Source: Thermoproteota archaeon
GTDB taxonomy: Archaea > Asgardarchaeota > Jordiarchaeia > Jordiarchaeales > Freyrarchaeaceae
Assembly (NCBI GenBank): GCA_029258835.1
Contig: JAPDJY010000042.1
Coordinates: forward strand, 1-27,398
Reading direction: 5' to 3'
DNA length: 27,398 nt
The translations under genes were made by a program, and so were the position numbers. The notes under the pieces are model-generated. The model worked only from the letters and a program-made list of their open reading frames with translations. It did not search any database and was not told the DNA's origin. Shown here piece by piece: positions 23,767 to 27,398 of the stretch; position 1 is the first letter of the stretch; each line of letters opens with the position of its first letter.

Positions 23767-24828
23767 TTACGATTTTAGGTAGAGGTGCTTGGAGATGTAA
23801 AAGAGGGAGATTAGCAGGATCAGGACTCCTGTAACGACTTTCAGGATGGATAAGGTGAACGTGATAGGGTTAAGGTTGGCAAGTAGTATTACGTGGTATA
23901 TTAGGGAGATAGCATAGGTTGAGGCTGTAATGGAGGCGGGAAGCGCCTTGCTGATGGAGGAGCCTTGAGGGGAAAAGGCGATGTAGGCGAGAAGGATGCC
24001 GAGTATGAGGAATGACGCTCCCTCGATTAGTGGCTCTCCTCCGAATAGGGAGGGTGAGAGGACAGGGTAGCCTGAATCTAAGGCGTAGTGGACGAGTGAG
24101 AGGGGGAAGGAGAACTCTGAGATGGCAGCTAGGATCGAGGCTATCGAGCCTGTAACACAGAAAACTTTGACGTCTAAGCTCCACCCCTTCAGGAAGACGG
24201 ATAGGGTTGACAGGAATGCGAGAAGCAGGAAGAAGAGGGAGGAGACAAGCAGCGAGTTTCCGCTTATGGCTGCATACTGCCATCCAGCGTTCAGCCCTAA
24301 GGAGACGCCGCAGCTTGAAGGGGGGGAAAGCTCTACAATCAGGATCATTGCCGAATAGTACGGGTTTTCACCCAGCGAAGTTGGGGAGAGACAGGCTTGG
24401 ATTGATGCCATGGTTCCAACCGATACGGCGGCGTCAAGTCTGGTTAACGAGAGGAGAAGCATGTAGGCTGCACCGGTTAGGAAGGCGAAGACGAGGAATT
24501 TCTCTGCCACCTGCACGTTTACGTACCCTACTGCAAAGTGGAGGAGCAGTAGGCACCCTGTGGTTCCTAGGAGGGCGAGGGCGGCTGCCAGCGCAGGTGA
24601 GAGTATGAGGGGGGAGAGAAGAAATCCCACCGCACCCATCCTTGCAACATAGTAGAGTAGGGTACTCGTCAGGGATGAGAGGAGGCAGAACGATTCGAAA
24701 AGTAGCATAGCGCCAGCTAACCCTACGGCGGCACGCCAATGCTTCCCGACGAGTTGCAAGCCATCTAGCCCCCATTCAAGGGTTAAAGGGTAAACCCGCT
24801 TTCTCAGCTGCCTTGCGGAGGAGCGCAT
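23767..24828 (-). CDS. Hypothetical polytopic membrane protein (start uncertain, probably near 24760)
   Basis: About 9-10 hydrophobic segments; the ORF-track start overlaps the 3' end of the GH57 gene. Confidence 0.7.
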   Translation of the reverse strand: MRSSARQLRKRVYPLTLEWGLDGLQLVGKHWRAAVGLAGAMLLFESFCLLSSLTSTLLYYVARMGAVGFLLSPLILSPALAAALALLGTTGCLLLLHFAVGYVNVQVAEKFLVFAFLTGAAYMLLLSLTRLDAAVSVGTMASIQACLSPTSLGENPYYSAMILIVELSPPSSCGVSLGLNAGWQYAAISGNSLLVSSLFFLLLAFLSTLSVFLKGWSLDVKVFCVTGSIASILAAISEFSFPLSLVHYALDSGYPVLSPSLFGGEPLIEGASFLILGILLAYIAFSPQGSSISKALPASITASTYAISLIYHVILLANLNPITFTLSILKVVTGVLILLISLFYISKHLYLKS

Positions 24829-25933
24829 TAAACACGTTTAAGTCCCTGTAAACCTTGGGAAGCCACTTGGCCTCCCAGAAGAAGTTACAGCTTGTTTCGG
24901 CTCTTAGAAGGTGTTCTTCAGCTAGTGCTATCAACCGTCCAGCTTCGCCGTCAGCGCACCCAATTAACGCTTTGAGGCAGCGTAATTTAGCGCTGGCATC
25001 CCAAACTTCCTTCATAGCCTCTCTCTGAGCCTCGTGTCCAATCCACTGGGAGAAGGTCTCCCCGTCGTTAGAAAAGGTCTTCCAAGCGCCAGTCTTCACC
25101 CTAACATAGTCTTCTGGAGGGTGCTCCTTCAAGAATTCGGATATTGAGGTCATGGTGACGCCGCAATCTTGCTCTGTAAGTTTCACGTAGGGTTTGAAAA
25201 AGTACCCCCAAAAGTTTTTCGACTCGTCTACTTCCCTAAACCATCTACTGTTTTCACCGTCACTCCACGTCGTAACCAGTAGGGCGCCTTTAAACCTTGA
25301 AGTTTTAGCTTTAACCATGTTAATGAAGCCTCTTGGAGTGACGCCTCCCATCTGGGCATCGCTTAGCTCCTCGTTGCGTGGTATCACGGTTATTTCCGCT
25401 CCAGAGTGCTCTGCAAGGTGCGGCTTAAACCCTCGGTCTTCCCCTCCCCCCTCGATGTACCTTCCATCAACTACAACGTACTTAAACCCTAATTCCGACA
25501 GGAGAGGTATCATTTTCATGGTGAAGCCTAGCTCGGGGGGCCAGAAACCGTTAAACTTTAAACCTAAGCGCTCAGCTTTCCTAACCCACCTCAAAACGTG
25601 GCTTTTCCAGTCGCTTTCAGGTATCAGGGGGAAAACAGGATGGTAGAAACCCGTCGCAAGAAACTCCACATTGGAGAGGTTAACGTAGCATTCTAAAGCG
25701 TCCTTCAGGCTTCCTAACTCGTCTAGGGTGAGGGTGCACATTTGCTCTAGGAGGGTGCCTGAGATGCTCAGGTGGACGGCGGCGAGGCCTTCACACTCAG
25801 AAAGGTACCGGATCGGCCTGATGTAGCATTGAAGAATCCTTAACGCTTCTTCCCTATTTGTAGAGAGGAGAAAATTCATGTTTCCATGAGGCTGGTGGAA
25901 ATGCAGTCCTAGGGCATGGTAGACCTCTGGCAA
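24776..25933 (-). CDS. Glycoside hydrolase family 57 (alpha-amylase-like)
   Basis: HFHQP, SISGTLLEQ, YHPVFPL, GFWPPE (nucleophile), DGEN (acid/base), AETSC. Confidence 0.9.
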   Translation of the reverse strand: MPEVYHALGLHFHQPHGNMNFLLSTNREEALRILQCYIRPIRYLSECEGLAAVHLSISGTLLEQMCTLTLDELGSLKDALECYVNLSNVEFLATGFYHPVFPLIPESDWKSHVLRWVRKAERLGLKFNGFWPPELGFTMKMIPLLSELGFKYVVVDGRYIEGGGEDRGFKPHLAEHSGAEITVIPRNEELSDAQMGGVTPRGFINMVKAKTSRFKGALLVTTWSDGENSRWFREVDESKNFWGYFFKPYVKLTEQDCGVTMTSISEFLKEHPPEDYVRVKTGAWKTFSNDGETFSQWIGHEAQREAMKEVWDASAKLRCLKALIGCADGEAGRLIALAEEHLLRAETSCNFFWEAKWLPKVYRDLNVFNALLRKAAEKAGLPFNP

Positions 25934-26014
25934 CGGATACCCTCCACCCGGAGCAGCACGAACTCAAAAGCGATTTTTTAAAGGAAAGGAAAATTATTGT
26001 AACTTATAAGGGTT

Positions 26015-26100
26015 ACTGGTGAGTCCAGTGTTCCCAGACGGCGAGGGACACGAGACCGATCACCCGGGTTCCCACCATTCAGCGTGGGAGCGAGTCCTAA
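26015..26100 (+). mobile_element. Putative IS200/IS605 right-end remnant (subterminal hairpin plus upstream structured scaffold)
   Basis: TTCCCAC-CATTCAGC-GTGGGAG-CGAGTC (26069-26096) resembles the IS605-type right-end pattern TCCCACG.CTT(C/T)AG.CGTGGGAG...GTCA (recalled consensus); further hairpins lie upstream. Confidence 0.5.
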
Positions 26101-26154
26101 AGAGAGGGATGCTAAAAACGGGCGTGTACCATGAGGCCGATAGGTTGCACATGG

Positions 26155-26760
26155 TTAATAGGAGACTAATTCCACACTGACCTGCCCTTTCCCTATGGTT
26201 GCAACCGCGACGCCTTGCGAGCACTTACCCACGTTAACCACTATGGTGTCACCTAACGTGCATTTCCCCCGTGACTCATGTATGTGCCCACAGAAAACTA
26301 GTTCAGGCTGCTGGGCTTCAACGAACTCCCTGAGAGGCTTACTACCGGCATGTAGCCCACTCCACGCCTTATCGCAGCACCGGTATGGGGGCTCGTGGGA
26401 GACAACAACCATCGGGTTGCTACCCCGAGAAAATTTTGTTAGGATGCTTGGGTCGTACCTGGCACTGAGGCCGAGAAAGTCGACTCCGCTGAGAGTGACC
26501 AGCTGCCCATGAATGCACCTTACGTCCTTAAGGGGGAGTTGAAGATCGCGGCTTACATGGTCCATGTTACCCCAAACGTATAAGATCGGAGCAAGCCCTT
26601 CAATGTTCCTCAGGACGAGGATGGCGTCATCGGCATCTCCCGTATGTGTTATGTCGCCACAGACCACCACCACGTCGGGTTTAACCTTTTTGATGACTTT
26701 TTTAGCATCGTTTAGGGCGGCAGTGTTCCCGTGAATGTCGGAGATGGCTACAAGCTTCAA
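26155..26760 (-). CDS. Calcineurin-like metallophosphoesterase (Icc/YfcE-like)
   Basis: DIHG, GD, GNMD, SHEPP, GHIHE. Confidence 0.93.
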   Translation of the reverse strand: MKLVAISDIHGNTAALNDAKKVIKKVKPDVVVVCGDITHTGDADDAILVLRNIEGLAPILYVWGNMDHVSRDLQLPLKDVRCIHGQLVTLSGVDFLGLSARYDPSILTKFSRGSNPMVVVSHEPPYRCCDKAWSGLHAGSKPLREFVEAQQPELVFCGHIHESRGKCTLGDTIVVNVGKCSQGVAVATIGKGQVSVELVSY

Positions 26761-26981
26761 GACCCACCCCTTCTTCCCGTTTTCAGCTAAAAAAGAAACT
26801 ACTAGAAGATTTAAAGAATATTTCGAGGAGAGAATATGGATTAAGCGAAGAGAGCCTTAGATAGAACTAGAAAATGGAAGGAGATAAAGAGGCAAGGGGA
26901 GAAGCTCCATGTTACCTGGGTGAATGCGGGTAGTGTGAACAGTTGGAATGCTACCCATAGAAATGAGAATTACAGTGGATA

Positions 26982-27007
26982 ACACGGCAATCATACACGG
27001 CAATCAT
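26982..27007. repeat. Perfect 13-bp tandem duplication (ACACGGCAATCAT x2)
   Basis: Seen directly at 26982-26994 and 26995-27007. Confidence 0.9.
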
Positions 27008-27044
27008 CGCTTTCTAAACATCCCATTATGTTTTTCACCTCGCC

Positions 27045-27219
27045 TCCACGTAGACTTACTTTTACTTGCTCCTCCCTTTCCGTCAGTAAGCGTGGACGTA
27101 TTAGCTGGCTACCTCCAGAGGTAGACGCGCGCCTCAAATCACCCCTCCGGGTACTCCCGGAGAGCCCCCGCGGTTGGGGGGTCTATCGCTTCCCAGCCCA
27201 CCTGGAACCTTGAGGCGCC
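27045..27219 (-). ncRNA. Putative structured ncRNA: four-way junction followed by two hairpins
   Basis: 9-bp closing stem GCGCCTCAA/TTGAGGCGC (27129-27137/27210-27218) encloses three hairpins; also CTACCT/AGGTAG and TCCACG/CGTGGA with inner CTTACT/AGTAAG. One G-U wobble favours the minus strand. Confidence 0.5.
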
Positions 27220-27247
27220 TTGCGAAGCAGTTAAATATAATGGTGGG

Positions 27248-27398
27248 TGTTTGGGGTGCTGGTTTGGCCACGGGGTGGCTTATGGGTGGAGTCTTCGGAT
27301 GTGGGGCTCTGGGGTTACCCCGAAAGCCCCATTAGAGGCGTATGCCTCGATGATGGGGAAACGATTGATAGACCAAAATCCACATTTACCCATAAAAG
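27248..27398 (+). mobile_element. Probable degenerate tnpB 3' end with overlapping omega/reRNA-like structured scaffold (runs off the window)
   Basis: Reads CLGCWF...VAYGWSLRMWGSGVTPKAP..., similar to archaeal TnpB C-terminal tails (CxxC...WNL..MWG..V.P) from memory. Nested stems TTATGGGT/ACCCATAA, CCCCATTA/TGATGGGG, GAGGC/GCCTC. Confidence 0.45.

Follow-up and report, generated by a model that had tools for sequence, protein, structure and literature searches.

What occupies the last 1.4 kb (26015-27398) of this archaeal contig: a cluster of orphan guide RNAs, or a single mobile element among ordinary spacers? The stretch of DNA analysed here (27,398 nt; hereafter the window) is the whole of contig C34 of an archaeal-type assembly of 2.72 Mb in 91 contigs. 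The assembly is a metagenome-assembled genome (MAG) with an estimated contamination of 6%, and all copy counts given below, as well as the count of one intact tnpB gene, apply to this assembly only. The initial annotation of the locus described three GC-rich, hairpin-dense non-coding modules (modules 1, 2 and 3, numbered here from left to right), interpreted them as orphan RNA scaffolds of the IS200/IS605 insertion sequence (IS) type with no intact TnpB, and proposed that they form a trans-acting guide-RNA locus. We find that module 3 is part of a short transposon derived from a TnpB-encoding element, that it carries an omegaRNA-type scaffold, and that the region as a whole is probably the product of one mobile-element insertion and not an array of three RNA scaffolds. 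The parts of the element within the window are as follows.

27217 to the contig end, plus strand: module 3, a repeated element cut by the contig end.
27217-27398, plus strand: the same element as a truncated mini-transposon, TnpB-derived and without an open reading frame (ORF), similar to MITEs (miniature transposable elements with inverted repeats) and palindrome-associated transposable elements (PATEs); 182 of ~201 nt are present.
27217-27264, plus strand: left end of the element, with a box resembling a transcription factor B recognition element (BRE) and TATA box (GCGAAGCAG-TTAAATATAA; TATA at 27231-27240).
27266-27280, plus strand: linker hairpin GGCCAC-GGG-GTGGCT, joining left end to scaffold, with pairs kept across copies.
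27290-27398, plus strand: omegaRNA-type scaffold (3′ coding tail of tnpB plus right end), without its last ~19 nt and the guide.

The repetitive nature of module 3 was evident from a search of the genome with positions 27000-27398, which returned ~30 matches of 80-95% identity, all of them starting at 27216/27217 or at 27293. The right-end scaffold is present in 29-30 genome copies, and 23 of these, the window copy included, are ORF-less elements of 196-207 nt with common sharp ends (GCCTTGCGAA... at the 5′ side and ...CAAGCGTGAACCCC at the 3′ side). When the copies were aligned, similarity likewise started sharply with GCCTTGCGAAGCAGTTAAAT... at the 5′ end and stopped sharply after ...CCTATCAAGCGTGAACCCC at the 3′ end, with unrelated flanks outside, and in 28 copies the unrelated flank follows directly after the common end ...GTGAACCCC. 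Six further copies share the last ~128 nt only, and there this stretch is the end of a tnpB gene; one more copy, found by the covariance model described below, lies beside a tnpB fragment on C22.

The relationship of the short copies to tnpB-bearing elements extends to both ends, as the mini-elements share an identical right end with the tnpB-bearing copies and have a left end akin to those of full-length relatives. The initial annotation was correct in regarding module 3 as a tnpB tail and right end without tnpB: the open frame at 27251-27397 reads the TnpB C-terminus ...SLRMWGSGVTPKAPLEAYASMMGKRLIDQNPHLPIK (the tnpB tail is also given as ...PKAPLEAYASMMGKRLIDQNPHLPIK), and the element holds the tnpB 3′ tail and right end only, with no tnpB of its own. 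The start assigned to module 3, 27266, was too far to the right; the repeat alignment places it at 27217, and the element runs off the contig. The mini-element is an internal-deletion derivative, in which the left end with its putative archaeal promoter (BRE/TATA-like) and the last ~128 nt of the parent stand ~50 nt apart. We also considered reading element positions 17-77 as tnpB codons and dropped the claim because the homology was too weak. Short, ORF-less, multi-copy and sharing its ends with a gene-bearing parent, the element is of the MITE/PATE type.

Evidence for mobility came from the copy at C24:25910-26109, which interrupts an ORF. Its exact excision in silico restores a 150-aa frame (...RRMIRLGI/VPIPLKVKV...), which shows that the element is mobile, that its boundaries are right modulo 3 and that insertion produced no target duplication. 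No duplication is present in the flanks, and the ends, GCCTTGCG... and ...GTGAACCCC, do not form inverted repeats. At other copies, the right flank of C2:74804-75002 contains a tRNA T-arm-like sequence (GGGTTCGAACCC), and ~140 nt downstream of the C27 copy there is a second, more divergent mini-element (C27:30199-30424) that consists of a left-end match (30199-30244) and a weak scaffold match (30302-30424). A left flank of 9 nt, AACCTTGAG, is common to two independent insertions (window 27205-27216 and C4:82922-82932); its resemblance to the element start GCCTTGCGAAG hints that targets similar to the element's ends may be preferred.

The missing end of the window copy was sought at the other contig ends of the assembly and was not found there. 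It is present on a metagenome contig, L072 (Ga0180302_10016187), which differs from the window by one base across 25900-27216 and extends beyond the contig end. On L072 the element occupies 2067-2267 and ends (...CAAGCGTGAACTCT) 19 nt past the window, and the right flank provides the predicted guide at this locus, CCGCCTCAGCCTACTTGGTG. The element is followed on L072 (2268-3638) by a 344-nt spacer, a yjbQ-like gene (138 aa) and a gene of the metallo-beta-lactamase (MBL) fold. This gene order matches that of the family relative G001, in which the yjbQ-like protein is 73% identical and the spacer at the syntenic place measures only 225 nt, compared with ~1 kb at this locus. The right-hand part of L072 (2268-3638) has no blastn match in the assembled genome. 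When the window and L072 are compared (27217-27398 and 2067-2248), the 182-nt repeat accounts for three of the four differences and the 1317 nt outside it for one, a clustering that looks like assembly read mixing between copies and not strain variation.

To describe the scaffold as an RNA, we built a covariance model (R1) from 28 other copies, leaving the window copy out. With filters off and a threshold of E<=10, the sole match to R1 in the window was 27290-27398 (99.9 bits, E 7.5e-23), and across the genome R1 identified 30 strong copies. Homologues of the TnpB encoded on contig C9 (60-74% identity) are found in MAGs labelled Desulfurococcaceae, Baldrarchaeota, Archaeoglobaceae, Nitrososphaeria, Brockarchaeota, Jordarchaeia and Bathyarchaeia, and R1 matches the tnpB 3′ end in 17 homologue loci of other phyla. 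In the alignment of these 17 loci, pairing is kept in 89% of cells, both partners have changed in 13 of 19 pairs, none of 500 shuffles reaches the observed values, and slid partners fall to 28-71% paired; because the alignment was fitted to the model, these numbers lean toward structure. Two helices (CCCU/AGGG and the inner hairpin) have had their sequence wholly replaced across phyla with the pairing kept, and the terminal GAACCC(C/G) is retained. The scaffold is thus shared, with covariation, by tnpB genes of several archaeal phyla.

Within the genome, 97.9% of cells are paired among the copies, changes in the stems are mostly from G-C to G-U, the loops vary freely, and in two copies (C2 and C38) the GAGGC/GCCUC hairpin has been rebuilt as GGGC/GCCC. 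The complete 150-nt module-3 RNA from two other copies folds at z = -3.8 and -4.1, against a background of mean z -0.32 (sd 1.14) for 120-nt windows across the contig. A candidate pseudoknot (GGGGUU/AACCCC) was rejected, as compensatory evidence for it is absent among the copies. Searches of the window and L072 against Rfam, at gathering thresholds and at E<=10, gave chance-level matches only. The family provides a compact, testable TnpB/omegaRNA pair and a covariance model that Rfam lacks. The view that base pairing was kept while the protein frame eroded is supported for module 3, both among the copies and through covariation in distant relatives, and not for modules 1 and 2.

The AT-rich box that the initial annotation had placed between two diverging modules, as a central and possibly bidirectional TATA, turned out to be part of the element. 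The TTAAATATAA box lies 14 nt inside it and is kept in 23 of the 23 ORF-less copies, whatever the neighbours. Full-length relatives have similar left ends, followed by TTTATATA or TTAAATAT before an ORF with a helix-turn-helix (HTH) domain and tnpB; examples of such left ends are GCCTTGTGTAGC... in this genome and GCCTCGCGAAACTATTAAATAT on L050, which belongs to an Archaeoglobaceae MAG. The left-end box is a putative promoter, and transcription would start ~25 nt downstream of it, at about 27260-27266. The box, which is kept beside unrelated left flanks, was brought in by the mobile element as part of module 3. Nothing demonstrably ties it to module 2, which would have been without it before the insertion.

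A guide RNA of this kind would need a TnpB protein, and a candidate partner is present in the genome. The tnpB gene on C9 is an uninterrupted ORF of 394 aa with Pfam OrfB_IS605 and Cas12f1-like TNB domains, and its product, aligned with ISDra2 TnpB, keeps the RuvC D/E/D residues. It is the sole intact one, the other five tnpB-ending copies being frameshifted or cut by contig ends. With an intact cognate TnpB encoded at another locus of this genome, loading of the mini-element RNA in trans by the C9 protein is plausible. A search with the modules for intact tnpB copies in the genome, as the initial annotation had suggested, therefore succeeded for module 3, whose right end is found on the intact C9 gene, and left modules 1 and 2 unmatched.

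The family to which the parent belongs was examined through its transposase genes and its ends. A search of the genome for Y1_Tnp gave two matches only, both with in-frame stops and neither adjoining the element family, and a search for resolvase domains gave 12 matches, mostly adjoining tnpB genes. There are ~11 IS607-type pairs (resolvase-domain TnpA plus tnpB) in the genome, on C12, C20, C64, C3, C56, C11, C2, C36, C7 and C23. The parent tnpB is preceded by a 73-aa HTH_17/MerR ORF that has 40-56% identity to the N-termini of the genome's resolvase-domain transposases beside tnpB, and the resolvase catalytic domain is absent from the lineage. No conserved hairpin is visible in the first or last ~30 nt of the 29-copy alignment or in the left ends of the relatives, with no dedicated DNA-fold test made. 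TnpB's role in retention has been extended to IS607 elements, whose ends have neither palindromes nor target duplications (10.1101/2023.11.20.567912). Because of its HTH remnant, its lack of terminal repeats or visible palindromes and the absence of target duplication, the parent element looks IS607-type, that is, an HTH remnant of a serine transposase plus tnpB; membership in IS607 itself is tentative, as the catalytic domain is missing in the lineage. The designation IS200/IS605-type was therefore imprecise, given the IS607-type HTH remnant and the absence of evident palindromic ends. On C9 (L010), the HTH ORF (10-231) overlaps the start of tnpB (197-1381) in another frame; this layout of HTH followed by tnpB recurs in relatives of several phyla, and a frameshift fusion or a dedicated regulator is possible.

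We then asked where the guides might point. When 29 predicted guides (the 16 nt past the right end) were compared with the whole genome, none had a second site with 0 or 1 mismatch, and matches with two mismatches occurred in about the number expected by chance. The suggestion that the RNAs serve as stand-alone regulators with targets in trans finds no footing in this result. It agrees with the canonical role, whereby every RNA is directed at the unoccupied form of the site in which its own copy sits. We propose that a ~200-bp non-autonomous derivative of a TnpB element inserted at 27217, between the metallophosphoesterase and yjbQ-like genes. Its left-end promoter would transcribe the scaffold and the flank, giving a ~150-nt scaffold followed by a ~16-20-nt guide copied from the right flank, and this guide RNA would be bound in trans by the sole intact cognate TnpB, that of C9. 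On excision of the element, the TnpB-RNA complex would cut the empty site, and recombinational repair would restore the copy. Such homing or retention by TnpB has been demonstrated for IS605 and IS607 elements. Movement of the mini-element would need a transposase in trans, probably one of the IS607 serine transposases of the genome.

The rest of the flagged region comprises the following features.

24776-25933, minus strand: GH57-family gene, the start of which opens the flagged 1.4 kb.
221 nt, between the GH57-family and metallophosphoesterase genes: spacer holding module 1.
26015-26155: module 1, single copy; on the minus strand, the 3′ untranslated region (UTR) of the phosphoesterase gene, including a T5 tract (26114-26118), then the GH57 upstream region.
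26155-26760, minus strand: metallophosphoesterase gene, 201 aa (Pfam Metallophos, E 7.8e-20).
456 nt, after the metallophosphoesterase gene: spacer, the right-hand portion of which is module 2.
27045-27216: module 2, single-copy intergenic DNA at the insertion site.

The metallophosphoesterase gene is a host gene, outside any element. The three stretches singled out by the initial annotation are real, and their GC content is somewhat above that of the surrounding sequence (0.57 at 26000-26150, 0.66 at 27100-27200 and 0.61 at 27250-27350, with neighbouring genes at ~0.50-0.55); the hairpin density ascribed to them is uneven. Module 1 folds at z = -1.6 on the plus strand and only -0.4 on the minus strand, no better than much of the window, and its region leads into TATA-like boxes before the GH57 start, so that it is probably a 3′ UTR/terminator and promoter spacer. 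Module 2 as delimited folds at z = -1.2 (minus) and -2.0 (plus). A 98-nt core within it (27125-27222), with borders picked after the fold was seen, reaches z = -3.7 (plus) and -2.9 (minus), and 0-2 of 200 shuffles are as stable. The part of the core at 27131-27219 is predicted to form a cloverleaf-like four-way junction with a 9-bp closing stem (GCGCCTCAA/TTGAGGCGC). The mobile element starts exactly at the 3′ edge of this core and supplies the last two of the nine closing pairs.

Searches for relatives of modules 1 and 2 were negative throughout. Neither has a second copy in the genome (blastn, word size 7), a match to R1 (E<=10, filters off), a blastx match to any ORF of the genome (27 tnpB loci included) or a match in Rfam. 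A Pfam search of the ORFs in the three modules gave no match, and scans of the window and L072 for tRNA and tmRNA found none. When the DNA of 40 relatives was searched with 25934-27216, the phosphoesterase gene alone was conserved, and sensitive blastn of the spacers against the relatives' syntenic loci gave no match. An exact-word scan of viral contigs with the cores of modules 1 and 2 and the scaffold gave two chance matches without flanking similarity and nothing else. An apparent extension of TnpB similarity into 27140-27216 (tblastn) is not credible, as it takes a gap of 14 residues and a few scattered identities to produce it. By every test made, then, neither module 1 nor module 2 is IS-derived, and the best explanation is that both are ordinary lineage-specific intergenic sequence, module 2 being a GC-rich, foldable piece of an expanded spacer.

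One way to account for the locus is to regard all three modules as eroded IS200/IS605 right ends that persist as stand-alone guide or regulatory RNAs, a single TATA box driving modules 2 and 3 in opposite directions. That module 3 truly is a scaffold made of a tnpB tail and right end, and that all three stretches are GC-rich and foldable, speaks in its favor. However, this explanation is largely refuted and in our estimation highly improbable, because modules 1 and 2 have no second copy and resemble neither a tnpB 3′ end nor any repeat or protein, because the tblastn extension into module 2 fails, and because the TATA box belongs to a mobile element that carries it beside unrelated left flanks, so that module 2 would have lacked it before the insertion. 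There is then no cluster of orphan scaffolds, nor do two modules share a bidirectional promoter. A different possibility is that the module 2 core at 27131-27219 is an independent structured RNA gene or DNA site, such as a tRNA-like four-way junction or a solo inverted repeat, at the edge of which the transposon landed. The stability of the core relative to shuffled sequence and the expansion of the spacer relative to G001 are consistent with this idea, and the former is a point against reading module 2 as plain spacer. We nevertheless think it quite unlikely: the core has no Rfam, tRNA or repeat match, no relatives among the 40 searched or at the syntenic loci and no recognizable promoter of its own, its borders were set after the fold was known, and two of its nine closing pairs come from the inserted element.

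For module 3 itself, the alternative to a working guide RNA is that a recent burst of a non-autonomous transposon left it and 22 sister copies behind as inert scars, which keep their structure only through youth, with no guide RNA made or used. Several observations weigh against our interpretation and in part toward this one. The copies are 80-95% identical with negligible covariation within the genome, their similarity could stem from recent spread rather than from selection on the RNA, and most cognate tnpB genes are broken. The window copy is slightly degenerate: within ACGCCTGA, a stretch that hardly varies among the copies, it alone carries a C-to-A change, and on L072 its right end has GAACTCT in place of GAACCCC. 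A search for the target-adjacent motif (TAM) in the flanks and at the restored ORF gave no more than a weak bias in the 5′ flanks (A at -2 in 13 of 23, C or T at -1 in 22 of 23), and the first three bases, an invariant GCC, may be part of the target and not of the element, a boundary ambiguity of 3 nt. On the other side, variation is concentrated in hairpin loops and linkers with the stems changing mostly from G-C to G-U, the C2 and C38 copies rebuild one hairpin in different letters, the left-end box is invariant in all 23 copies, the scaffold is structurally constrained across phyla, and the genome encodes one cognate TnpB whose catalytic triad is intact. We consider the inert-scar explanation unlikely on this balance and retain that of a mini-transposon carrying a constrained guide-RNA scaffold. 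A stronger version of the latter, in which the mini-elements are ~23 self-contained guide-RNA genes (left-end promoter fused to scaffold) that feed the single intact TnpB and in which, separately, module 2 is a four-way-junction RNA, is also one that we hold doubtful. If the guide-RNA part were true, the guides would together amount to a natural library spread over the genome. Such a library would hold insertions where they are, among them several in toxin genes and in a tRNA-like gene, and could cut incoming DNA carrying uninterrupted alleles.

Comparable elements are known. PATEs often encode omegaRNAs that need the TnpB of other elements in trans (Meers et al. 2023, PMC10055086), PATEs described from the archaeon Haloquadratum have kept C-terminal tnpB sequence (Dyall-Smith et al. 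2011, PMC3119063), and RNAs overlapping the 3′ end of archaeal tnpB genes are known as sense overlapping transcripts, or sotRNAs (Gomes-Filho 2015, PMC4615843). Promoter-bearing guide-RNA mini-elements served in trans by TnpB have thus already been described, and nothing here is conceptually new. Like PATEs, the mini-element is short, protein-less and multi-copy, with fused ends of a tnpB element and no target duplication; like the PATE HqIRS71, it keeps part of the tnpB C-terminal coding region; and, like PATEs, it carries a guide-RNA scaffold and would depend on a TnpB and a transposase in trans. In contrast to PATEs, it has no evident near-terminal palindromes, so that palindrome-associated is not strictly apt, its parent looks IS607-type, and its BRE/TATA-like box lies directly upstream of the scaffold, so that each copy looks like a self-contained guide-RNA gene. 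Also unlike PATEs, its host is an uncultured archaeon, in which the copies stand to intact cognate tnpB at ~23 to 1.

The scaffold overlaps the tnpB 3′ end and the right end, as do sotRNAs and the right-end element RNAs (reRNAs) of ISDra2 (Karvelis 2021, PMC8612924) and IS607 (10.1101/2023.11.20.567912). As in omegaRNA/reRNA generally, it stops at the transposon boundary, is followed by a variable flank as would-be guide and has helices that covary; it differs in standing without a gene, in having no Rfam counterpart and in being known from sequence alone. The parent resembles IS607 elements in having an HTH ORF with homology to the N-terminal domain of TnpA_S, as the genome's serine transposases are called, in its ends without inverted repeats or visible palindromes, in the absence of target duplication and in the company of the ~11 TnpA_S-tnpB pairs, whereas it has lost the catalytic resolvase domain and retains the HTH only. 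Mobilization would probably be by a TnpA_S encoded elsewhere. The occurrence of omegaRNA-like guides apart from a transposon context recalls TldR proteins, which are nuclease-dead TnpB-like RNA-guided repressors. Unlike TldR, however, the C9 TnpB keeps its RuvC D/E/D triad and the guides match their own flanks only, and no sign of TldR-type exaptation was found in the C9 triad or in the comparison of the 29 guides with the genome.

The annotation of the locus is accordingly corrected to a single mobile insertion flanked by ordinary spacers, with no guide-RNA cluster. With mini-elements outnumbering intact TnpB by ~23 to 1 in the genome of an uncultured, thermophile-type archaeon, the family offers a natural case for how protein-less elements exploit TnpB in trans. 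Outside the element, in the spacer upstream of the phosphoesterase gene, a 13-nt unit (ACACGGCAATCAT) is present as a perfect tandem duplication at 26983-27008.

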